Assembly (NCBI GenBank): GCA_016839815.1
Contig: JAEOTM010000111.1
Span: 1-17,179 of the forward strand
Direction: 5' to 3'
DNA length: 17,179 nucleotides
DNA from: Candidatus Hodarchaeota archaeon
Lineage (GTDB): Archaea > Asgardarchaeota > Heimdallarchaeia > Hodarchaeales > Hodarchaeaceae
Part shown: one piece after another, positions 390-17,179 of the stretch
Layout: each line of letters opens with the position of its first letter
Position numbering within the stretch: the first letter of the stretch is position 1
The notes under the pieces: generated by a model
Seen by the model: the letters and a program-made list of their open reading frames with translations, nothing else
The model's database searches: none
Told to the model about the DNA's origin: nothing
Program-made: the position numbers and the translations under genes

Positions 390-444
390 CTTCCCTGACT
401 AGAATAGTAAATAAATTCTTCGCTTGATCACACACTCTTTTTCC

Positions 445-582
445 CCCTCATCCCTCACCGTTTATTGTTGTTAAACAACGTGGAAAGGTTCATTCCTCTC
501 GTTTTCTAGAAGAAATAGCCTCAAGGAGTCGTAAAAAGTGTATAGAAGTAGCTTCTGGTCTTATGTCTGGGGGTTGCTTCTT
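445..582 (+). repeat. 23S-3'-end/trailer-derived intergenic repeat, copy 1
   Basis: GTGGAAAGGTTCATTCCTCTCGTTTTCTAGAAGAAATAGCCTCAAGGAGTC (480-530), then TTCTGGTCTTATGTCTGG (553-570). Preceded by the hairpin GTTGTTAAACAAC. Confidence 0.9.
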
Positions 583-591
583 ATTCTAAGA

Positions 592-1227
592 TTACACCCT
601 CTTCATTTTTCTCAAAACATAGAAAACTATACCCAGGGGTAGATTCCATCTTGGAACAACCTTCATGTAATTTCTATAATTTGAACCAAATTTGTCAATA
701 AGATCTTTTTCTTCTTCCATGGTTGATAGGTATAATAACACTAATGCTATGGCGCCTATCATTGTTATAATTAGATGTTGTCTTATTAATATAAATGAAA
801 CGATTATTGATGACCACCCCAGATATTGTGGGTGTCTGACTAAACTATATATTCCCGAATCAACAATTACCGTTGTAGATAGAAAATTCTCTCCTTTTTG
901 TACTTGTCCTTTTCTTGGAAAAAGTACATATGGTACTGGAACCAATAAAATCCCAATTATTAAGAAAATCAACCCTAGAACAAGTATCAGACCATCTTTC
1001 TCCTGATTAATGAATATTTCACCCAATAGTAGTTCCGCAATTAATAACATCCCCCATCCCCAACCCAGGGTAATTTGTTTTGGAGACTGGAAGTCTGCTC
1101 TCATTTTCCTCATCTGTTTTTTGTTTACTGAACGCTTCGTCATCCCGTATCGTAATAACGTGTATGACTTAAGTACTGGTCTTCTGTTTGATGGTTCTCT
1201 TCGTTCTTGACATTTCATTGAAGTCAT
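592..1227 (-). CDS. Isoprenylcysteine carboxylmethyltransferase (ICMT/Ste14)/PEMT-family integral membrane methyltransferase
   Basis: Family motifs GIYSLVRHPQYLG and EEEKDLIDKFGSNYRNYMKVVPRW, plus 4-5 hydrophobic segments. ATG at 1227 overlaps the upstream TGA (ATGA). The true start could be further downstream (MRKMRADF). Confidence 0.85.
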   Translation of the reverse strand: MTSMKCQERREPSNRRPVLKSYTLLRYGMTKRSVNKKQMRKMRADFQSPKQITLGWGWGMLLIAELLLGEIFINQEKDGLILVLGLIFLIIGILLVPVPYVLFPRKGQVQKGENFLSTTVIVDSGIYSLVRHPQYLGWSSIIVSFILIRQHLIITMIGAIALVLLYLSTMEEEKDLIDKFGSNYRNYMKVVPRWNLPLGIVFYVLRKMKRV

Positions 1228-2321
1228 TTTTCTAGGGCCCAAAAGTATCTCTGATGTGGGAGAGATGCTTTGACAAATTCCACCTGGGAAAAAGGACTAT
1301 CTTGGACTAATTCTCGAAAGCTTTTTTCATTATAGAATTTCGATCCAAAGCCAATTTCATACCATTTATGCAAGATTAAATCGAAATGGGGTAGTTTTTC
1401 TGCATCTAATCCGGGAATCATTGGTTCTCCCACAATTAACACTCCTTCCTTGGACAATAATTGATGCAAGTATTTAAAAGCTTGCTCTCTATATTTTCCT
1501 GACTGATTCATTTCGTGCAAGACATGATGGAGAAGGATTACTTCATATTTTCCTTTATTATGTTTCACATGGGATTCTAGGTCTGTGAATAGAATGGTTA
1601 TCCTCTTTTCTTCTTTCTCTTTGGATATTTTCTTCTTAATTTCCTCAACAGCTTCCAGATCGATGTCTATCCCTACTATTCTTGCCTTTGGATATGCCTT
1701 TGCCCAATTCTGTAAATTAAATCCGAATCCACATCCCACTTCTAGTAAATTTCCTCCTTCTTGGAGTATCTTTGATTGTATTGGATACTTTTCTGTAAAT
1801 AGCTGAATATGCTTTTTACCCAGGCGTGCGCTTAATTTATGTTCAGAGATGCGATTTTCTTTTGGAATACTTTGGTGGTTGTTGGTATCTCCTGTCTTAA
1901 AATTGGACATGATTTTCTCCTGAGAATGTGTCATAGTATAGAATAATCCTAGATACTCACCTGAGTACAACCTACTGGCAGTATCAATTAATAGCTCAAA
2001 TATATAGGGGGCGGTTTTCAATCCCTGTTTATGTTTTTTATCGTGAACGAAGATACCCGTAACTAGTGCTATCTGAAGCCATCCCTCCAGATAGTTAGTG
2101 TTTAACGATAATTCCCGTGACAATTCATCAGGTGTGAATGTTATTGCGGAAACTCTGTTTTCTGAGGTATTTTTCGCTTTAGTTAAAAGATAATCAAAAA
2201 TCCCTATCTTTCTCCCTAATCCAAACCACAGTACCACCTGAAATCCAAACATACTCTGAATCACATACTTTTGCAAAGCATCTTCAAGAGTTGGGTCCAC
2301 ATCGGTTTCATCCTGATTCAT
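1224..2321 (-). CDS. Class I SAM-dependent methyltransferase with N-terminal winged-helix/dimerisation domain (Rv2258c-like)
   Basis: Motif I LLEVGCGFG, acidic IVGIDID, YEVILLHHVLHE, LSKEGVLIVGE. N-terminal TPDELSRELSLNTNYLEGWL. GGAG Shine-Dalgarno-like sequence upstream. Confidence 0.9.
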   Translation of the reverse strand: MNQDETDVDPTLEDALQKYVIQSMFGFQVVLWFGLGRKIGIFDYLLTKAKNTSENRVSAITFTPDELSRELSLNTNYLEGWLQIALVTGIFVHDKKHKQGLKTAPYIFELLIDTASRLYSGEYLGLFYTMTHSQEKIMSNFKTGDTNNHQSIPKENRISEHKLSARLGKKHIQLFTEKYPIQSKILQEGGNLLEVGCGFGFNLQNWAKAYPKARIVGIDIDLEAVEEIKKKISKEKEEKRITILFTDLESHVKHNKGKYEVILLHHVLHEMNQSGKYREQAFKYLHQLLSKEGVLIVGEPMIPGLDAEKLPHFDLILHKWYEIGFGSKFYNEKSFRELVQDSPFSQVEFVKASLPHQRYFWALEK

Positions 2322-2548
2322 TTTTTACTCCTACGTAATTTTTTTCTTTATACAATCTCTGGTACTAAATACACCCTTAAATAACATTCCCCCTTCAACC
2401 TATTGCTATCTGTGTCCCTCTACATCTCCTTCTCTGAATCTTTTCAGAATTTCCACTATTTCTTTTGTTGTTAATGATCTATTCTGAAGACTTTCTGCTA
2501 ATTCAATTATTCTATTTTATAGATTAGTCATTAAAACAGCTTTAACGC

Positions 2549-2863
2549 CCTATTGGGTTCGCAAGATGAATAGGATATGAGTGCTTCTAGTCTACGGGTT
2601 ATCCGGAAGGGTACTGCCCGGCCGCCACGCGCTAACCGATAAGTGCTGAATGCATCTAAGCACGAAACGGACCTTGAAAAGATGAATCCATTTTACCATC
2701 AGCGCTAAGCCATGGGGATTGGCGACGATAACCATGAGATGGTAAACGAGTGCTGGGATCTTTCTTGAAAGAAATCCCGTTGATAGAGGAGTTTTCTGAT
2801 AAGAAATACGCGTGGAGGATCTTCGACATGCTTAGCTGGCTCCCACTAATCGCACAAGGGCTT
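2549..2863 (+). pseudogene. rrl: Isolated 3'-terminal fragment (~315 nt, domain VI, H95-H101) of an archaeal-type 23S rRNA
   Basis: GATAAGTGCTGAATGCATCTAAGCACGAAAC (2638-2668) is the conserved H97 region (recalled consensus GAUAAGuGCUGAAAGCAUCUAAGcaCGAAAC). CTTCTAGTCTACGGGTTATCCGGAAGGGTACTGCCCGGCCGCCACGCGCTAA resembles archaeal H96. GTTGATAG (2779-2786) and TAGCTGGCTCCCACTAATCGCACAAGGGCTT match the terminal helices in the expected order. The sequence upstream is AT-rich and non-rRNA, so this is not a full gene. Confidence 0.85.
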
Positions 2864-2981
2864 CAAATTGAAGATTAGTGTGGAAATTTTCAGTCCTCTC
2901 GTTTTCTAGAAGAAAAAGCCTTAAGGAGTCAAATAGAGTATATGTGTCAGTCTTCTGATTTATGTCTGATGGTCAATTCTT
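2864..2981 (+). repeat. Repeat copy 2 core (putative 23S 3' trailer), contiguous with the 23S fragment
   Basis: GTGTGGAAATTTTCAGTCCTCTCGTTTTCTAGAAGAAAAAGCCTTAAGGAGTCAAATAGAGT...TTCTGATTTATGTCTGATGGTCAATTCT directly follows the rRNA 3' end and the hairpin CTTCAAATTGAAG. Confidence 0.92.
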
Positions 2982-3148
2982 TTTTACTTCTTCTTTGTTT
3001 AATCTTTGAATATCGATTAGTTTTTCTCAAATAGATTCTCTACTATTTAACTTGAGGGTGTAGTACTGGAGTGACAAGAGTAATATATTAGGTAGAACTG
3101 GAGAAAGCGATAGACTATTAAGGAATAAAGATAATCGGATTTAGTCAC

Positions 3149-4387
3149 GTGAGTTTTCAGGTGAGGTTCTTGGTCGAATTCAAAAAAGCAATCTTCCAGA
3201 ATGGAATTAGCACTTTTCTCTTCATATGTACTATTATTCTCCCATTTCTAGATTTTTTTGGGCCTATCTTTACTAAATCGAAAGAAGGAGTTTATAGTGC
3301 TGAATTCATGTTTCGCTCTCTCTATGTTGGCTGGATGTCTGATGTCCATCATATGGCTGGTCATGATGAGGTTCCGTATGAATCCTTTATCCCAAGTTCC
3401 TATAAACTATTCCTTAATCTCAGTTACATATTTCTTATTCTCAGTTTGGTTTTCGCTAGTATTTTGTTCCTTTATTCAGTTATTGTGTTCCCACAGGAGC
3501 AAATCACTAACCGTTTTAAACAAGTCAGAAGGATGTTCTTCTTTGTTTGTATAATCATATTTCTCCTACCCACTGCGTTTCTATTTCTGGTTGCTTCTTC
3601 TCCAAGTACTTATTCCCAAGCAGATTGGAGTTCACCCACCTTACTTAATCCGTTGATTATTCTAGATTTATCAGTTGGAATTTTATGCTTACTTTTTGTC
3701 TTTTATAACATAACTAAGAAGGAAAAGCTCTTCAAACAACTAGAAGGCCCCCATTCGATATTTAAACGATTTTTACTTGCTCCCCAAAAAGTTCTTTCTG
3801 ATTCATTGGGAGTCAACCAAAGACCTAGGCAACCCACCAAGATGGAACGATTAGGTTTAAGTTTAAAAAATGGATTAGGAGTTCCTGTAAACACTGCTGC
3901 AGAGGTACTTCAGACTTCTAGCAACATTGACATTCCACGAAAAATTAAGCATCTATTTCAAAAATGGGAGGAGAATGATTCACTAATACTACGTGGTGGA
4001 GTATTTTTTATCGAAAAGACTCCTGCTCCGACAAGCTATTGTCAATTGTGCGGTGGTGGTTCAATAGAAAGCGAGATATATTTTCAATGTTGTACTTGTG
4101 AACAATACGTGTGTTCTCCTCATTTCACTCAACTTACCTCTGTTGGAAAACCGACTTGTTCAAATTGTGATGGTAAGCTGTATTATTTTCCTTTTACCTG
4201 TCAAGGTTGTCAATTGGATTTCAACTCAAGAAGCGAGATTAATGGAGAACCAGAATTTTGTCCTCTATGTGGTCACTCTTTACCTTCTCAAGAGCTGTTA
4301 ATAAACACACACTTCTCTCCCCCACCTAAAATACAAGAGAATCCTCACAATAATAGAGACAATGAGAAGAACAAGGACAAACTATAA
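3149..4387 (+). CDS. Membrane protein (about 4 TM) with C-terminal RING-like Zn finger plus zinc ribbon
   Basis: 412-aa ORF with GTG start. Four hydrophobic segments. C-terminal CQLC-x12-CCTC-x4-CSPH-x11-CSNC, followed by CQGC...CPLC. Confidence 0.8.
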   Translation: MSFQVRFLVEFKKAIFQNGISTFLFICTIILPFLDFFGPIFTKSKEGVYSAEFMFRSLYVGWMSDVHHMAGHDEVPYESFIPSSYKLFLNLSYIFLILSLVFASILFLYSVIVFPQEQITNRFKQVRRMFFFVCIIIFLLPTAFLFLVASSPSTYSQADWSSPTLLNPLIILDLSVGILCLLFVFYNITKKEKLFKQLEGPHSIFKRFLLAPQKVLSDSLGVNQRPRQPTKMERLGLSLKNGLGVPVNTAAEVLQTSSNIDIPRKIKHLFQKWEENDSLILRGGVFFIEKTPAPTSYCQLCGGGSIESEIYFQCCTCEQYVCSPHFTQLTSVGKPTCSNCDGKLYYFPFTCQGCQLDFNSRSEINGEPEFCPLCGHSLPSQELLINTHFSPPPKIQENPHNNRDNEKNKDKL

Positions 4388-4410: not shown

Positions 4411-4545
4411 TAACCGATGGTGGTAACTGTAACCATTTACTGGTTAGGAAACGCTGGGATCTTTCGTGAAAGAATTCCGTTGATAGAGCAGTTTTCGAAT
4501 AAGAAATACGCGTGGTTCTGGTCTTATGTCTGGTGGTCACTTCTT
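4411..4545 (+). repeat. Repeat copy 3: 23S fragment joined directly to the repeat 3' end (internal deletion)
   Basis: 4453-4515 aligns to 2752-2815 at 58/64 positions (counted by eye). It is followed immediately by TTCTGGTCTTATGTCTGGTGGTCACTTCTT (4516-4545). Confidence 0.9.
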
Positions 4546-4572
4546 CCTACATATCTTATTTGTGAACCTTTT

Positions 4573-5100
4573 CTATCTTGATTTCTTGGAAATCACTTTT
4601 CGGGCTAGATATTGAATTATCTCTTCGACTTCAGTCCCCCCGCGTTTCGGATAACATTCAAAGTAGGGTGCTTCAAGTTCGTGTGCTAATGTTTTTGCTT
4701 CTTCAGAGGACACTTCTTCTGCTTCTTCCCCCTCGGTTTGAAAACCAACGATCGCTATTGGCAGGGGTATAGGAATATAGTTTTCAAAATCCTGTTTCCA
4801 TGTCAGTATTTGGTGAAAAGAGTCTTGATTCCCTTTACTAAAGAAAATAATGATGGCTGAAGCTCCTCGGTAGTAGCTGGGTCGGAGGATTCCAGCAGTG
4901 TCAACTAAGATTATTTTCAGCTGAATATCATCAATCTGAATTTTCTTTGTAGTAATATCCACACCTAGTGTGGGGAGATAGTTGGTATCGTATTTATTTT
5001 CCACAAATCGACGAATGAATTTTACTTTCTGGTCATCCACACTCCCCAGACAACAAATCTTTAGCAAATATTCCTCCGAGTTTTCATTTTCGTTTGTCAC
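4573..5100 (-). CDS. Rab-like small GTPase family protein, degenerate (probable pseudo-GTPase)
   Basis: LLKICCLG, effector loop YLPTLGVDITTK, LVDTAG, RPSYYRGASA, VSSEEAKTLAHELEAPYFE. Lacks GKS/T, NKxD and SAK. GTG start with GGGAG upstream. Confidence 0.85.
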   Translation of the reverse strand: MTNENENSEEYLLKICCLGSVDDQKVKFIRRFVENKYDTNYLPTLGVDITTKKIQIDDIQLKIILVDTAGILRPSYYRGASAIIIFFSKGNQDSFHQILTWKQDFENYIPIPLPIAIVGFQTEGEEAEEVSSEEAKTLAHELEAPYFECYPKRGGTEVEEIIQYLARKVISKKSR

Positions 5101-5115
5101 TCTTTGTTCTCCCTT

Positions 5116-5625
5116 CTAATTCCCAATCCCTTGTTTCGCTAGGATCTGAAAGATGTGTTCGATTTGTGTCTTGTCAGCTATTTGTGTTTCAAAGTACTGA
5201 CCATTGAGTTCCTTAGCTAATTGTTCTCCTTCCTCTCTAGTCACTTCTTCGCTCTCAGTAATTATTCCTACTATCGCTGTGGGAACTTGAATTGTTATTT
5301 TTTGTTTGAATTCTCTATGGAAGTCTTTCACCATTTGATAGGCTTTTCGATCATCCTTTCCAAAGAGAAATATCCCTGCGGACGATCCTCGAAAAAAGCT
5401 GGGACGATTGGGACGGAAAAAGTCCTCTCCTGCTGTTATCGTAATAATAAGTTTCACCTGTAAAGAGTCGAGTGTAATTTTCTTGGTAGGGATATCCACA
5501 CCCAGTGTAGGTAAGTCATCTCTGTCAAAGACATTATCGGCCGTTATTCGTCCAAATTGCTTGTTTAATTCTGTATTTTTCCCACTAATACTAATTTTCA
5601 GCAGATAGCCGTTTTCATTTGACAT
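5116..5625 (-). CDS. Rab-like small GTPase family protein, degenerate (probable pseudo-GTPase), tandem paralog
   Basis: LPTLGVDIPTKKI, ITAGEDFFRPNRPSFFRGSSA, VTREEGEQLAKELNGQYFET. P-loop, the G3 Asp and G4 are absent. Confidence 0.82.
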   Translation of the reverse strand: MSNENGYLLKISISGKNTELNKQFGRITADNVFDRDDLPTLGVDIPTKKITLDSLQVKLIITITAGEDFFRPNRPSFFRGSSAGIFLFGKDDRKAYQMVKDFHREFKQKITIQVPTAIVGIITESEEVTREEGEQLAKELNGQYFETQIADKTQIEHIFQILAKQGIGN

Positions 5626-5933
5626 ATCTAGTACTCTTCCTTGGAGTCTGTATGTACTGTGTGAATACGAATTTAGGACTATCTAGAGAAACTCTACTTG
5701 TATCAAAAAAATTCATTCCGCGTTACACGGTTATTGTGTTTCATCTTGACTTTTCCGGTCATATTCACTTGTAGTATTTAAGAAAACTATCTTATTCCCT
5801 CCCTCATCCCATTAGTAATGTTTCCGATAAATTCCGACCTGTCTCAGCTGGGAGTATCCCGAAAATGATGAAAATGAACATTATTTTGTGAATAATTCCA
5901 GAATTTGGATTTTTTCCCACGTTACACGGTTTG

Positions 5934-6050
5934 AACTGGGGCTTTCACTCGTATGAGAGCCATCTGTGTGGAAATTTTCAGTCCTCTCGTTTTCTCACAG
6001 AAATAGCTTATAGGAGTCGTACAAGTATGTTTGTGAGATTTTTGGTCTTG
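5934..6050 (+). repeat. Repeat copy 4
   Basis: GTGTGGAAATTTTCAGTCCTCTCGTTTTCTCACAGAAATAGCTTATAGGAGTC...TTTTGGTCTT. Preceded by ACTGGGGCTTTCACTC, which resembles AGCTGGCTCTCACTC of the rRNA end. Confidence 0.88.
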
Positions 6051-6123
6051 AACAAGAGTTCATGGGTAAAAGAACTGCACTATAAACTTAATAAGGAAAT
6101 TCTCATTTATTAGGTTTAGAGAC

Positions 6124-6195
6124 TGAAATTCTCAGGTCTCGTGACAGTTAGCCTGAAGGAGTCTCAAAAGTAACCGTGGAGAGCGTTCTGAGTTT
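6124..6195 (+). repeat. Repeat copy 5 (highly degenerate)
   Basis: GAAATTCTCAGGTCTCGT...TAGCCTGAAGGAGTC...GCGTTCTG keeps the core motifs in order, with the central hairpin shortened. Confidence 0.55.
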
Positions 6196-6907: not shown

Positions 6908-7062
6908 ATCTCCGACGTCATTGGGAAGTCTTATAGCTGGCTCTCACTCCTCGCACACGGGCTATTGTTGCCAAACAATGTGGAAATTGTCAGTCCTCCC
7001 GCTTTCTTCAAGAAATAGCCTTAAGGAGTCTAATAGCGTGTGTTCGCGAGCATTCTGGTCTT
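6907..7062 (+). repeat. Repeat copy 6 (keeps ~55 nt of the 23S 3' end)
   Basis: GATCTCCGACGT (compare GATCTTCGACAT at 2818), TAGCTGGCTCTCACTCCTCGCACACGGGCT, hairpin ATTGTTGCCAAACAAT, core GTGGAAATTGTCAGTCCTCCCG...GCCTTAAGGAGTC...TTCTGGTCTT. Confidence 0.9.
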
Positions 7063-7181
7063 CTATCCTCAAAAATCTTTCTTTCTGCATTAAAAAATTG
7101 ATTTCCAGAGCTAATATTCAAATCCTGATTTTTTCTTTTATTTCAATTCTTTTGGTCGACAGTGTCGTTTTATAAGGACAT

Positions 7182-11393: not shown

Positions 11394-11942
11394 TTTAAAC
11401 CCGGAAAGTTGTTTTCTTGAAAATTCGAAAAGTTTTGACTGATATTCGGGAAATTATAGTATATAAAGTCTTTCACTAGTAAATCCATTATTTTTAATCA
11501 CCTGAAAGTCTCTTATATTCCGTTTCAACTCTAGACGTTTTAAAACATGCTCTCTTGACTCTTTCCAATTCAGGGGATTGTTTTTTTTGCTGATAAATGG
11601 GCAAAGAAGGAGGATTTAATCATGTATGTGCATGGGAAGATGCTTTGTAAAAAGGTGAATCAAAAGCATCCATATTTCGCTGTTATATTATTCAGATGTA
11701 TTATTTCTCAGTATTTTTTATCTTAAATACACTTACTTATCTCAAAAAAGAGTTTAAAGGTTACAAATATAAAATGGATTTTTGTAAGTCTTAAATAGCG
11801 TTAGACTAATCAAATTCATAATTTCTTTAGGAGGAAGGGTTGTTCTTTATGTGATGACTAATCAGAAAGTTATGGAATACATTCAAATGGCGAAGAATCT
11901 ATTGGATGATCCAACCCTATAGAGAAACTGGATTTTAATTAC

Positions 11943-12080
11943 TACTCCTTGCACACGGGCTACTAATGAAAAATTAGTGTGGAAAGTGTCAGTCCTCTCG
12001 TTTTTTTGAAGAAATAGCCTTAAGGAGTCAAATAGAGTGTGTTCAAGAGTGTCTGGTTTTTTATCTGGTGGTCATTTCTT
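11943..12080 (+). repeat. Repeat copy 7
   Basis: ACTCCTTGCACACGGGCT, hairpin ACTAATGAAAAATTAGT, GTGGAAAGTGTCAGTCCTCTCG...GCCTTAAGGAGTCAAATAGAGTGTG...TCTGGTGGTCATTTCTT. Confidence 0.92.
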
Positions 12081-12162
12081 TTTCCATACTAGCTTTCTGC
12101 TAAACTTTTTTATTCTAAGTATTGATAAGGTTTTTAAATTACTCCTCTGATCAGCCTTCGAG

Positions 12163-12981: not shown

Positions 12982-13025
12982 GAAGAGTTAGGAACCAAAG
13001 ATTAGACCAATATTGATGCTCATCC

Positions 13026-13165
13026 AGCTGCCACTCCTCGCACAAGGGCAATTTCTTATTAGAAAGGTGGAAAGGGTCAATCCTCTCGTTTTTCTTAGAA
13101 AAAGCCTTAAGGAGTCAAATAGTGTGTGTTCAGGGGCTTTCTGCTCTTATGCCTGGTGGTTCTTT
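13026..13165 (+). repeat. Repeat copy 8
   Basis: AGCTGCCACTCCTCGCACAAGGGC, hairpin TTTCTTATTAGAAA, GTGGAAAGGGTCAATCCTCTCG...GCCTTAAGGAGTCAAATAG...TTCTGCTCTTATGCCTGGTGGT. Confidence 0.92.
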
Positions 13166-13318
13166 TTTTAATATTGGTTTCTTGTGAATTCCACTTTTAA
13201 TCCATTATTTTGCAGAAACCTTCCCAATCACTTTCTATCTATGATGGGAAAGTTTATTATTATCTTTGTTCCTTATGCAGGGCAATATTTTATTATTTAA
13301 AGGGAAAGCGAAACGAAG

Positions 13319-13858
13319 ATGAGTTTTAAACCTGAGGAGCAGAAAAATACCATTATTGGTATTATGGGTTCAATCTTTTTTGTATTTTTAACAATTCTCG
13401 TACCGTTGTTTAGGATATTTGGGGGTTTTCTAACCTATTCTAGCAGCTCTATATCAGGAGAGTGGTATTGGAATGAAGTAAGTATTTCTGGTATGATTTC
13501 TCGTGAAATGAGTTATCCTGAGTATGTTGCGCAAAATGACGAATTATCTGGACTTTGGCTCACAATTGGTGATTGGGGATTGTTTTGGATTGTATTAGGT
13601 TTTTTTGGAGCATTTTGCATAATTCTTCCCTCCATTCGTAAATTTCCTGAGAAACCTATTATTGGAGTTATAGTCCCTACGATTGGCCTTATTACTGGTC
13701 TTCTTGCCACCGTAGTCGAGTTTGGTCTGTTTTTCCTTGTGTTGAACGAGGAGGATTGGGGGGCGACTACTCCTGATCTGAATCTTGTATTACTAGCTTG
13801 TTTTATCCTAGGTTGGATAGTATTCATAATCAGCTATTATTTTTCCCTTAAAAAGTGA
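13319..13858 (+). CDS. Four-TM hypothetical membrane protein
   Basis: 179-aa ORF with four hydrophobic helices and a larger first loop. Confidence 0.75.
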   Translation: MSFKPEEQKNTIIGIMGSIFFVFLTILVPLFRIFGGFLTYSSSSISGEWYWNEVSISGMISREMSYPEYVAQNDELSGLWLTIGDWGLFWIVLGFFGAFCIILPSIRKFPEKPIIGVIVPTIGLITGLLATVVEFGLFFLVLNEEDWGATTPDLNLVLLACFILGWIVFIISYYFSLKK

Positions 13859-13878
13859 GTTTCTTTACTTATCTTGGA

Positions 13879-14000
13879 TTCTTGAGAAGAATAAGTTCTG
13901 TAAATTTTCAGTCCTCTCGTTTTTTCTTTTAAGAAAAAGAAATAGCCGTAAGGAGTCAAATAGAGTGTATGTGTCAGTCTTCTGGTCTGGTGGTCACTTC
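13879..14000 (+). repeat. Repeat copy 9 (no recognisable rRNA portion left)
   Basis: AAATTTTCAGTCCTCTCGT...AATAGCCGTAAGGAGTCAAATAGAGTGTATGTGTCAGTCTTCTGGTCTGGTGGTCACTTC. Confidence 0.9.
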
Positions 14001-14185
14001 ATCTTTCATATTTTCATTATCAGGAATTTTCCTTTACAAGACTGATTCGAAGATTTTCGCGAGTTATCCCTCTAACCTGGTAGACCCTCTATTGAGGGTT
14101 CTTCTCACCATCAAGTTAATTTGGTTATCCTTTTGTTAAGGATCATCAGATTCGAGAGATTCGGATGATTTTCCTCTTTTTTGTT

Positions 14186-14770
14186 TTACTCCCAAACCGC
14201 TATTTCTTTCCATGGAACTTGTAGGGTTTTGAATACGCGAATTATTGAATGAGCATTCCGTTTCTCACAATAGATTATGCTTTTACCCAATTTACGAGCA
14301 TTTAATTGGGCTACTATTCCCTCAATTCTTGACTCGTAAGTTTTATTCTTATAATGAGAAGTGCTTTTTCCTCCATATAAAGCTCTATGCAATTTTTTCC
14401 TGGTTGCAGGGGGTACATCTTTCAACTCATAAATCAGCAGCATTTTTGGAACAAATTCACTTTCGTCCACCATGACTTGAATGGGTCTTCCATACAATAA
14501 AATTCCTTCTCCTGCTAACGCGAATTGGATTTCTAATTCTTTACTTAGTTCTTCTATTGATAAATGGGTTGTTTGAATATTCTCACTTTTCTGTTGGTTT
14601 ATACGTGTTACCTGTTCAGGATTTTTCTGATCATATATCACCGCAATATCAATATCAGACGTCTTTGTGTCATTACCAGTGGCTACACTTCCAAATAAGA
14701 CAATTGCCAATATATTCTCTTTTTCTGATATTTTTTTGACAAAACGAGTCGCCTCTTCAAATTTAGACAT
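14186..14770 (-). CDS. Minimal nucleotidyltransferase (MNT, MntA-like antitoxin) with C-terminal Cas2/PaaX-like extension
   Basis: VLFGSVATG...SDIDIAVI is the GS-x10-DxD signature. Extra C-terminal ~85 aa: LLIYELKDVPPATRKKLHRALYG...LGKSIIY. Overlaps the upstream gene by 8 bp. Confidence 0.88.
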   Translation of the reverse strand: MSKFEEATRFVKKISEKENILAIVLFGSVATGNDTKTSDIDIAVIYDQKNPEQVTRINQQKSENIQTTHLSIEELSKELEIQFALAGEGILLYGRPIQVMVDESEFVPKMLLIYELKDVPPATRKKLHRALYGGKSTSHYKNKTYESRIEGIVAQLNARKLGKSIIYCEKRNAHSIIRVFKTLQVPWKEIAVWE

Positions 14771-15137
14771 CTAGCTCCCTCTTACAAATCTTTTTTAACT
14801 TTTGAAACAGTTCCATAGCTTCTTGTGCGTACTTGCCATTTGTTTTTCTCCCGTAGACTAATCCTGGACGGAGTTCTTCAAATCTGGTTACAATCTTAGC
14901 TATCTCCTCACTCTTTTCTCCCATCCTTTTTTCACGTCTTAATATTCCTGCTAGTCTATTATGCTTGATATCTCTCTTTAAGTGCAGAGTATTCAACTTA
15001 TGCATTGTAGCATTAATATAGTGAGCACTAATCAACATTAACAGTTCTATTATGGTTGCATAGTCAGTTTCGGTATCTAACTTGCTTAATGTGCTTTCTA
15101 GTTCAGTAATTTTGCTTAAATGGTAGTCGATTTTCAT
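14763..15137 (-). CDS. HEPN-domain protein (putative toxin of the HEPN-MNT pair)
   Basis: 124-aa all-helical protein with H-N-R-L and C-terminal R-x4-Y (LRPGLVYG...AQEAMELF). Coupled to an MNT gene. GGGG upstream of the start. Confidence 0.72.
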   Translation of the reverse strand: MKIDYHLSKITELESTLSKLDTETDYATIIELLMLISAHYINATMHKLNTLHLKRDIKHNRLAGILRREKRMGEKSEEIAKIVTRFEELRPGLVYGRKTNGKYAQEAMELFQKLKKICKRELDV

Positions 15138-15265: not shown

Positions 15266-15357
15266 GTACCACATAGATCATTAAGATTCCCATTAAAAAA
15301 AATGTCACAGCAATTTTTTATGCTATTTCAGTTCTTTAAAACTTTGATTCTTTCACA

Positions 15358-15490
15358 CTCCCACTAATCGTACACGGGCTATTTTTTTAGAAAAAGTGTG
15401 GAAAGGGTCAGTCCTCTCGTTTTCTAGAAGAAAAAGCCTTAAGGAGTCTAATTGCATGTGTTGAACGCTTCTGGTCTTATGTCTGGTGCA
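15358..15490 (+). repeat. Repeat copy 10
   Basis: CTCCCACTAATCGTACACGGGCT (nearly identical to the 23S end at 2840-2862), GTGTGGAAAGGGTCAGTCCTCTCGTTTTCTAGAAGAAAAAGCCTTAAGGAGTC...TTCTGGTCTTATGTCTGGTG. Confidence 0.93.
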
Positions 15491-15868
15491 TGCTTTCTTA
15501 ATTTCGTTTTGAGTTGTGGATTTTGAAATCCCTCTAAGGGTATAATAATTCAAGTGTACTTTTCTCCGTCACTTTTTCCTTTTCTAATCCTTAAAATCGT
15601 AACTGGAATCGTGAGGTGTCTTCAGGGATAGTTCTTGGCGTTCTACAACTGGGACACATGAGAATTTTCTTATTTTCTTGGATTTGAGGGACCCAAACAC
15701 TTCCACAGGTACAAAATAGTGAATCTTCACTCCTTACATGTTCAGGAATAATATCTTGTGTTCCGATTGCTATTGGCTAAACCTCCTGCTAATTTTGTTT
15801 TTTACCTATATAAAAAGAAAGAAGGGAAAGGAAATGAGAAGAGAGAATTCCCTGGTAAATCCTCCTTT

Positions 15869-16410: not shown

Positions 16411-17067
16411 TCACTATAGATTATCTCAAAGTGTATTTTCCTGTCAGATCTATTAGTTAAATCCAATTTCCTTTTTTAATTCACAACGTAGAAATAATAT
16501 TATTGAGTATTGTGAATAAATTATTTAGAGTAAAGATTACCTTATTGATGGAGTTTTCTAGATTTAATTCTGAATTGAAAGCTTTTTCATTTGTTCGATT
16601 ACTAGAAAATCATGTTTTTCGTTATACTTGGATTGAAAATCGCAACCATTCTTGGAGAATCCTACAAATAGAGTGGATACAGCTAATAGTTCAAGCAAAA
16701 TCTTATTTTTGGTCGTTACCATTTTTATTCAAATTGAAAATTTCATTTTTTTCTTACTCTAAGGAAGTTTTAATTAGATACTTTATTCGAAGTATCATCA
16801 TTATTCTCTCTGGTAGTGATTGAGTGATCCACACCCCTTCCAATGAAACGTTCCACCAATGAGACCTAATATTCTACCAATAAATTGTAAATCAGCCATT
16901 TGTGTCACATTCTGTATCTTTTTCTTTAAAATCAAGTTCTTCTTCAGATTTTGATTTTGACCCAAATTTTATCTTCAGGAGAAATGTATACTTTGTGAGA
17001 AGAATTCTCGAAAAAACAAGAAGTTCTGTGATTCTGATCTGTTTTTAATAATTTCAAGTATATGTGC

Positions 17068-17179
17068 TTATTTCAATTTATCATATTCTTTGGTTAAATC
17101 CGTTAAAAAGCTTCCTGTTATATCTAATAACTTAGTTGCACTGTCAGAGGTAAGATTTATTTGATATGTTGTATCCAAG
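17068..17179 (-). CDS. C-terminal end of a gene entering from the right edge
   Basis: Open frame ...LDTTYQINLTSDSATKLLDITGSFLTDLTKEYDKLK* with TAA at 17068-17070. Only 36 codons are visible. Confidence 0.4.
   Translation of the reverse strand, partial: LDTTYQINLTSDSATKLLDITGSFLTDLTKEYDKLK

Follow-up and report, generated by a model that had tools for sequence, protein, structure and literature searches.

The stretch of DNA analysed here (the window) is the whole of contig JAEOTM010000111.1 (C62), 17,179 bp from Candidatus Hodarchaeota archaeon, a member of the Hodarchaeales. The host MAG (GCA_016839815.1) contains 4.24 Mb in 206 contigs with a GC content of 36%, is 89.5% complete, and encodes Ras-family GTPases. 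The features of the window are listed in Table 1. Between an ORF for a SAM methyltransferase (1224–2321, minus strand) and one for a membrane protein (3149–4387, plus strand) lies a fragment of 23S rRNA domain VI that continues without a break into the core (2863–2990) of a repeat found at many places in the window. An earlier note, made from the sequence by itself, had proposed the rRNA identity, with its landmarks in order, as well as this placement between two protein genes and the direct passage into the repeat; all of these are borne out, the first by a significant covariance-model match and the others by the ORFs and the repeat mapping.

The model RF02540 (LSU_rRNA_archaea) matches the fragment with 69.6 bits (E 1.8e-19; Rfam cmscan in E-value mode on window 2300–3200), which is above the gathering score of 50. 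The confident alignment relates window ~2577–2869 to model ~2770–2987, and the elements follow one another in the order H96, H97, the GUUGAUAG junction, H99–H101 and the ACUAAU terminal strand, with few non-canonical or broken pairs; an insert at the H98/ES39 site is also resolved. Similarity to other copies begins at ~2551 (CTATTGG). The fragment is not a complete gene, as there are no domains I–V upstream, where the methyltransferase gene and non-rRNA spacer lie, and no intact sarcin-ricin loop (AGUACGAGAGGAAC). Neither a gathering-mode Rfam scan of the whole window nor a whole-genome LSU search matched it. Because the fragment is detected in E-value mode these misses are filter artefacts, and the expectation that annotation pipelines overlook partial rRNAs of this kind holds for the default scans used here. 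The assembly lacks the 23S gene of the host together with its leader, as judged by the same whole-genome LSU search.

Table 1. Features of the 17,179-bp window; all lie on the plus strand.
Positions	Strand	Feature	Details
437..587	+	Repeat copy, short form	nhmmer E 3.6e-36
1095..1215	+	Repeat copy, strongly decayed, between the genes for the ICMT-like protein and the methyltransferase	Alignment to G018:C266
2549..2862	+	Orphan decayed 23S domain VI copy	RF02540; alignments to orphan and genuine copies. H94 remnant, H96, H97, H98/ES39, H99, H100, H101 and 3' terminal strand; sarcin-ricin loop absent
2551..2580	+	5' edge of the copy	CTATTGG common entry point, H94 5'-strand remnant, 22-nt gap removing H95/sarcin-ricin loop; alignment gaps against all other long copies
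2692..2746	+	ES39-type expansion at H98	55-nt insert in the CM alignment; also in G004 and G007 genuine 23S
2755..2812	+	Two AT-rich helix-extending insertions, TTTCT..AGAAA type	H99 loop and H100
2862..2880	+	hp1 hairpin module, exactly at the 23S 3' end	Partly degenerate in the focal copy
2880..2990	+	Trailer-derived repeat core	GTGGAAA, CAGTCCTCTCG, hp2, GCCTTAAGGAGTC, tail TTCTGATTTATGTCTGATGGTCA, T-run
2902-2917	+	hp2 hairpin	At the putative BHB bulge position
4421..4551	+	Partial copy, rRNA H98-H100 fused to the repeat tail via an internal deletion	Repeat families D9, D12, D6
5916..6190	+	Split or rearranged repeat copy	5916-6071 plus block ~6139-6190
6935..7083	+	Repeat copy	nhmmer E 6.4e-38
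11937..12088	+	Repeat copy	nhmmer E 8.8e-40
13022..13171	+	Repeat copy	nhmmer E 3e-37
13858..14010	+	Repeat copy	nhmmer E 1e-26
15353..15500	+	Repeat copy	nhmmer E 5.6e-39

Window 2549–2990 is an orphan, non-functional duplicate of the final ~470 bp of the 23S transcription unit, and the rRNA part is a pseudogene or gene fragment and not a working or split rRNA. The lesions can be specified closely. The sarcin-ricin loop is universally conserved, and it falls in the 22-nt segment that the focal copy has lost; in intact copies this segment is bracketed by a direct repeat, GAGAGGAAC, which suggests that it was removed by a slippage deletion. Relative to the genuine genes and to G018:C162, a 'clean' orphan of 199 bits, a second small deletion is seen at the 5' edge, and the two insertions in H99 and H100 are found in neither of these. 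The decay is not confined to the focal copy. Orphans in G007 show 93–94% identity to the real domain VI of the same genome, as against 97% between the G007 gene and the clean copy of another species, and this lower identity fits a relaxed constraint on the orphans.

The earlier note had also raised the possibility of a split rRNA, with the fragment as a separately encoded 3' piece of the 23S; a related reading would make it an alternative ribosomal domain VI. Some isolated copies in congeners do score per position like working rRNA (215–226 bits), and their trailers pair with the real leader. However, the window copy scores only 69.6 bits, copies are numerous in each genome and are found in every state of decay, and in G004:C44, G007:C8, and the metagenome contigs L047 and L048 the genuine 23S runs through domain VI without interruption. 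The suggestion is thus unsupported, given the loss of the sarcin-ricin loop and the contiguity of the gene in congeners, and we consider it highly improbable.

Since the host 23S is unassembled, the 23S 3' ends of congeners were used as the reference. Four genuine 3' ends from the same genus are contiguous with upstream rRNA, and these are in G004:C44 (model positions 1423–2973), at the end of G007:C8 (model positions 2545–2987, 328 bits), and in the metagenome contigs L047 and L048, which were retrieved by a motif spanning the domain V/VI border. All four carry the ES39 insert of the fragment, which was therefore inherited from the rRNA. Behind GGGC(T), each of the four trailers contains GTGTGGAAAT, GTCCT.TCGT, TTAAGGAGT, TCTGATGTCTG and a T-run, and these are the modules of the repeat core in identical order, so that in these four the sequence downstream of the 23S gene is related to the repeat. 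A profile made from three genuine trailers, all of other species, finds window 2846–2973 at E 4e-6, and the addition of four clean orphans brings this to E 3.2e-7; the other window copies match the family of the focal copy at E 1e-26 to 1e-40. Together the shared modules and the trailer-profile match support the origin of the repeat that was put forward in the earlier note, namely the 3' end of the 23S together with its 3' trailer. A full 23S gene in G001:C57 (L018) was rejected as a further reference. It has no ES39 insert, is followed by an unrelated trailer, and is probably foreign to the G001 bin.

These comparisons bear on the concern that the contig is an assembly chimera, or that the rRNA of another organism has been joined into it. 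Very deep foreign metagenome contigs map to the conserved rRNA stretch 2293–2865, and the pieces from the marine-sediment runs that we searched are too short either to prove or to disprove the window junctions. The fragment, however, bears the ES39 sequence specific to its genus, is fused to a host-specific repeat, and has the same fragment-plus-repeat architecture in at least eight independently assembled genomes, all of which leave a chimera scarcely credible.

In archaea the 23S processing stem contains a bulge-helix-bulge (BHB) site that is cut by EndA and ligated by RtcB (PMC12918454; PMC7038931). The 23S leaders of G001 and G016 hold the exact complement of the tail module of the repeat, and they are also complementary to the GAGCAGTCC/TCGTC and TAGTGTTAGGA blocks; the matching segments in the G007 leader are GATCCTTAAGC and GACGAAATAGGACCGC. 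Cofolding of the G001 23S leader with a G001 orphan trailer gives −115.8 kcal/mol with 82 intermolecular pairs, compared to −79.0 ± 4.5 kcal/mol for shuffled trailers. From these leader complements and the G001 cofold, the repeat is assigned to the 3' strand of the processing stem; in the predicted structures, derived from leader–trailer folding in G001 and G007, it is the 3' strand of helix 1 and of the long processing stem of the 23S, and the oligo-T run behind it would be the terminator of the rRNA transcription unit. A long-range duplexfold of the G007 leader and trailer was not informative relative to shuffles, and the window repeats show no more cofolding with the leaders of G001 and G007 than shuffled sequences do (z −2.1 to +0.9), these leaders being from other clades than that of the host. 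No leader-like (complementary) copies are present inside the window with up to one mismatch allowed. The repeat core is thus like the archaeal processing stem in being homologous to its 3' strand, with ~80 bp of pairing to the leader in G001; unlike it, the array copies are without a partner strand in cis and carry hp2 inserted at the putative 3' bulge.

The orphan belongs to a family of co-oriented 23S-tail copies that partition a hypervariable accessory island into cassettes of 1–3 genes. All of the window copies are on the plus strand, and the terminal rRNA motif recurs with few mismatches at the starts of those at 6942, 11941, 13027 and 15360, as the earlier note had read them. The host genome contains 42 repeat copies, which are co-oriented within every contig; eight strong and some weaker ones are in C62, 12 are in C196, and the rest are on short contigs. 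On C196 the copies extend from position 79 kb as far as the end of the contig, and this contig end cuts an rRNA fragment. At the right end of C62, window 17053–17179 is identical (100% over a 127-nt overlap) to G000:C145:4640–4766, and C145 looks like an assembly-graph neighbour. Arrays are present also in the congeners G002, G012, G013, G018, G020 and G007, and are strictly co-oriented there (10/10, 7/7, 7/7 and 9/9 copies).

The arrangement is clearest in G007:C8, where the real 23S gene is followed directly by a co-oriented array with orphan domain VI copies 7 and 26 kb downstream; direct partial repeats of the 3' end thus adjoin an intact 23S gene, an adjacency seen directly in this genome only. 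At least 12 long copies, from eight genomes, all start at (ATTGG)ACGTGTTGGAT, give or take a few bases. This point is the domain V/VI border, and the DNA that precedes the copies is unrelated. The long copies therefore have the fixed crossover point of att-type duplications, and the short copies start raggedly. Decay is unordered along the G007 array, in which the copy at 27.7 kb outscores the copy at 46.3 kb. G009, a single-scaffold genome without a detectable array, has a relic of ~150 nt (L034, G009:C1:2878500–2878700, minus strand) retaining the canonical start CGTGTTGGATC, part of H95–H96, and the tail GATCTGATGTCTGTACGC only; there is no LSU match within 20 kb of it.

Many copies with a common 3' tail and differing 5' ends (query starts at ~16–35, 190–220, 285–300 and 330) could also be produced by retroposition, with 3' fragments of pre-23S being reverse transcribed and inserted in the manner of LSU-rRNA-derived SINEs. 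The distribution of the copies is hard to square with such a process, as they are limited to one locus or to array contigs and are strictly co-oriented. Moreover, 3'-truncated and internally deleted copies exist, no A-tails or target-site duplications are seen, and no reverse transcriptase (PF00078) is matched in the 89.5%-complete host genome. Retroposition is accordingly very unlikely.

The cargo of the cassettes is of the type found in variable islands and includes Ras-like GTPases, methyltransferases, HEPN/MNT, AbiE, PIN and Fic proteins, a nitroreductase, and surface proteins, with a composition that varies between genomes. Ras-like small GTPases, a hallmark of Asgard genomes, are the commonest cargo (at 4573–5625 in the window and on array contigs of five genomes). 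At least 19 of the 211 array ORFs fall into one Ras-like GTPase cluster, which includes LRR-Ras (ROCO-like) fusions of 584–685 aa, and 131 of the 211 are singletons. The methyltransferase cassette of the window (1150–2409) is present at 87% identity in G018:C266, where it is bounded by short repeats on both sides; its neighbours in the window, the ICMT-like gene and the long rRNA copy, are not matched there. This comparison exposed the strongly decayed repeat at ~1095–1215. We note that the TTG-started N-terminus of the ICMT-like ORF (592–1242, minus strand) overlaps this decayed repeat, and the true start of the ORF probably lies further downstream. A separate repeat-bounded cassette at 14186–15137 (minus strand) consists of an MNT-type nucleotidyltransferase (PF18765) and a small upstream partner, and looks like a toxin–antitoxin module.

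Genes on the plus strand end 0–41 nt before a repeat, and of the repeat-abutting minus-strand genes three end 5–22 nt after a repeat and the fourth (14186–14770) ends 176 nt after one. Genes lie in both orientations, and 75–540 nt of DNA precede their start codons. T-runs are provided on both strands by the hairpins and the tail, and together with this gene-stop geometry they fit a reading in which the repeats are boundary elements. The retained trailer is most likely a cassette boundary, which may act as a two-way transcription stop, as a recombination substrate, or as both.

The hp1 hairpin distinguishes the array copies from the genuine genes. In genuine trailers GGGCT is followed by 6–7 nt (AACCGT or GACCGT) and hp1 is absent; in 33 array copies from six genomes a hairpin of 15–18 nt replaces these 6–7 nt, its shape staying the same while the stem takes at least six different forms. 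Among the cells of the 7-bp stem in the 33 copies, 88.7% hold a standard pair compared to 68.3% after shuffling, and double-sided changes are found in 52 cells compared to 16.9, with none of 500 shuffles reaching the observed value in either measure and a covariation score of 0.51 against 0.17 or less for slid controls, all of these figures being inflated by kinship among the copies. The number of distinct stems is not easily accounted for unless there is selection or an origin linked to the mechanism. The constant shape and variable sequence of hp1, and its absence from genuine trailers, indicate that the repeats are constrained elements and not only scars. Hairpin aside, array trailers resemble the genuine trailer of their own clade, so hp1 either arose repeatedly at this exact site or survived homogenisation.

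One palindromic type of insert (TTTCT-loop-AGAAA) accounts for hp1, hp2 and the other AT-rich insertions. It occupies five positions in orphans, of which the H99 loop, H100, the site after GGGCT at the 23S 3' end (hp1), and the putative BHB bulge of the trailer (hp2) are filled in the focal copy, and the H97 loop is filled in sister copies. All five positions are unpaired in the RNA structure, and each insert provides T-runs on both strands; the inserts were seen in window 2755–2812 and 2862–2917 and in G000:C192, G020:C106 and G002:C65.

Such features raise the question of whether the repeats are functional RNA modules, either 3' UTR or antisense, that pair in trans with the pre-23S leader and tie the expression of the cassettes to the synthesis of rRNA or influence its processing, with domain VI a mere by-product. 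In genuine trailers, the segments that pair with the leader correspond to the four conserved blocks of the repeat, and the unpaired location of all five insertion sites, the compensatory changes in hp1, and the stops of plus-strand genes just ahead of a repeat also speak for this reading. We nevertheless regard this as rather improbable. The window repeats cofold with the available leaders no better than shuffles, albeit with leaders not of the host clade; hp2 at the expected BHB bulge would disrupt that bulge; and strict co-orientation whatever the direction of the genes fits an origin at the DNA level better.

The simplest reading of the array is that small cassettes accrete and are shuffled by recombination at 23S-tail copies, anchored at the 23S gene. 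Incoming or duplicated DNA bearing a 23S-tail copy would recombine with a resident copy, and the island would grow and be reshuffled, with every event adding one repeat copy. In the long forms the left edge is always the same, at the domain V/VI border. Displaced rRNA parts would then decay, through slippage loss of the sarcin-ricin loop in the focal copy and through internal or 5' deletions elsewhere, and AT-rich hairpins may build up at loop tips; the trailer part would be retained, and hp1 gained at the 23S 3' end. Taken jointly, an orphan 23S tail in an island of co-oriented cassettes that grew by recombination at the copies, with the trailer kept as a boundary, is the best explanation of the locus and in our judgement probably correct.

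A Pfam search for a recombinase covered the proteins of the arrays, the region upstream of the 23S gene in G016, the distal end of the array in G000, and the surroundings of the orphan in G010. It found none among the ~65 array and array-flanking proteins scanned. The tyrosine recombinase family (PF00589) has a single match genome-wide, on C183, and none on array contigs; the serine recombinase family (PF00239) has no match in the 89.5%-complete host genome; and matches to TnpB (PF07282) exist, none of them on array contigs. The integrase in or beside the insert that marks att elements is therefore lacking from the proteins scanned. No insertion or excision event was seen directly. Repeat joints in four marine-sediment DNA runs do not show excision and most simply represent other repeat copies, the organism being present at ~3–5x depth and the pieces being short.

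A serious rival is that the island derives from a single ancestral tandem duplication, comprising the 23S from the domain V/VI border together with downstream DNA, which was spread within the locus by unequal crossing-over and segmental duplication, and whose rRNA parts stay typical of the species through gene conversion with the real 23S, without site-specific entry or a dedicated recombinase. It would account for the failure to find a recombinase, and one ancestral edge kept uniform by gene conversion would explain the shared left boundary. Copies group by genome clade in the rRNA part and in the trailer alike, and paralogous cargo recurs in the arrays, as with the large Ras-like GTPase cluster (at least 19 members) and the repeated methyltransferases. 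Most cassettes, however, are unrelated singletons (131 of 211 ORFs), the same cassette is found in another context in another genome, and the 'clean' orphans (199–226 bits), which have unrelated flanks and occur in several species, suggest repeated recent births. On balance we think a single duplication unlikely, albeit less so than the other alternatives set out above.

Growth by recombination at 23S-tail copies has parallels in several known systems. Williams reportedly described, in 2002, how partial 3' ends of tRNA, tmRNA or housekeeping genes flank integrated elements, with duplications of att sites and tandem or degenerate island arrays. As in the tRNA and tmRNA att duplications, blocks of accessory DNA beside the intact gene are delimited by direct, co-oriented copies of a stable-RNA gene's 3' part, the long copies have a fixed left edge, and older copies decay. 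The differences are that the target here is the 23S rRNA gene, that ~470 bp are duplicated, that the units have 1–3 genes and the copies number in dozens, that an integrase was not found, and that the copies have gained a conserved hairpin. An expansion segment ES39 of supersized proportions in Asgard archaea was reportedly described by Penev et al. in 2020; the 55-nt H98 insert of the fragment is like it and is the same in the genuine 23S of the genus, but here it lies within a pseudogene, and the extra AT-rich insertions at the H97, H99 and H100 loop tips are specific to orphans.

Integrons with cassette arrays and attC/VCR repeats have been described in archaea (bioRxiv 10.1101/2022.02.06.479319). 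The Hodarchaeales arrays are similar in their length, in their small unrelated cassettes that include toxin–antitoxin genes, in their co-oriented ~150-nt repeats with a hairpin of conserved shape and variable sequence, and in a content that differs among close relatives. They differ in that no IntI is found and the 23S gene itself heads the array, in place of attI/Pc; in that the repeats are rRNA-derived and conserved in sequence over ~150 nt; and in that genes run in both directions with room for promoters of their own, unlike the cassettes of integrons, which are mostly promoterless and co-oriented with the array. The hairpin hp1 may be comparable to attC sites in its 7-bp stem with compensatory changes, although it is only 17–18 nt long, lies inside a repeat with a sequence conserved along 150 nt, and showed no R/L boxes. 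We can offer only tentatively the broader proposal that the 3' end of the single 23S gene of the Hodarchaeales anchors a gene-capture platform not described before, whose sites would be copies of the processing-stem strand with an attC-like hp1, served by some recombinase or by the recombination machinery of the host, and where much of the GTPase and toxin–antitoxin diversity of the lineage is generated and exchanged.

Mobile DNA at an rRNA gene is also known from Ca. Heimdallarchaeum, in which HeimM2 is found between the 16S rRNA gene and a tRNA gene (PMC8813620). HeimM2 is comparable in being mobile DNA at the end of an rRNA gene in a Heimdall-group archaeon; it is unlike the present arrays in that it consists of one element of 8 kb, which carries a homing-endonuclease-like gene and adjoins the 16S, with no repeat array or duplication of an rRNA tail. 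Our literature search found no description of cassette arrays derived from an rRNA tail. New are the assignment of the repeat to the processing stem, the covariation of hp1, the location of the insertions at sites that are unpaired or involved in processing, and the precise damage to the focal copy.

The orphan fragment is the key to a repeat family that otherwise looks anonymous, and it reveals ~100 kb of variable accessory genes organised by 23S-tail copies in a close archaeal relative of eukaryotes. If the array was built by recombination at these copies, it would represent a route of gene acquisition tied to the most conserved gene of the cell, and a site at which Ras-like GTPases diversify. 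There are practical consequences as well, in that such fragments break assemblies at the rRNA locus, are missed by default rRNA annotation, and can mislead rRNA-based binning and copy-number estimates.

Several further observations concern the rRNA genes of the congeners. G001 contains both the complete 23S without ES39 (C57) and a partial 23S of the genus type (C38), and one of the two is probably bin contamination. G001:C38 and G016:C9, which are independent assemblies, both break at 23S model position 2078, and G007:C9 breaks at position 1422; these breaks hint that the 23S gene contains more inserts or varies among strains. In G007 (L019, G007:C9) a 16S 3' end precedes the 23S leader with a spacer of ~290 nt, and the rRNA genes are linked; in G001 and G016 (L022/L044) no 16S end is present within 330 nt upstream. 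The genuine G007 23S (L013, G007:C8:52444–54756, at ~1860–2200 on the minus strand) is interrupted in H92, the A-loop helix, by 337 nt inserted at GGGCUGUU^C, which are probably an rRNA intron or intervening sequence.
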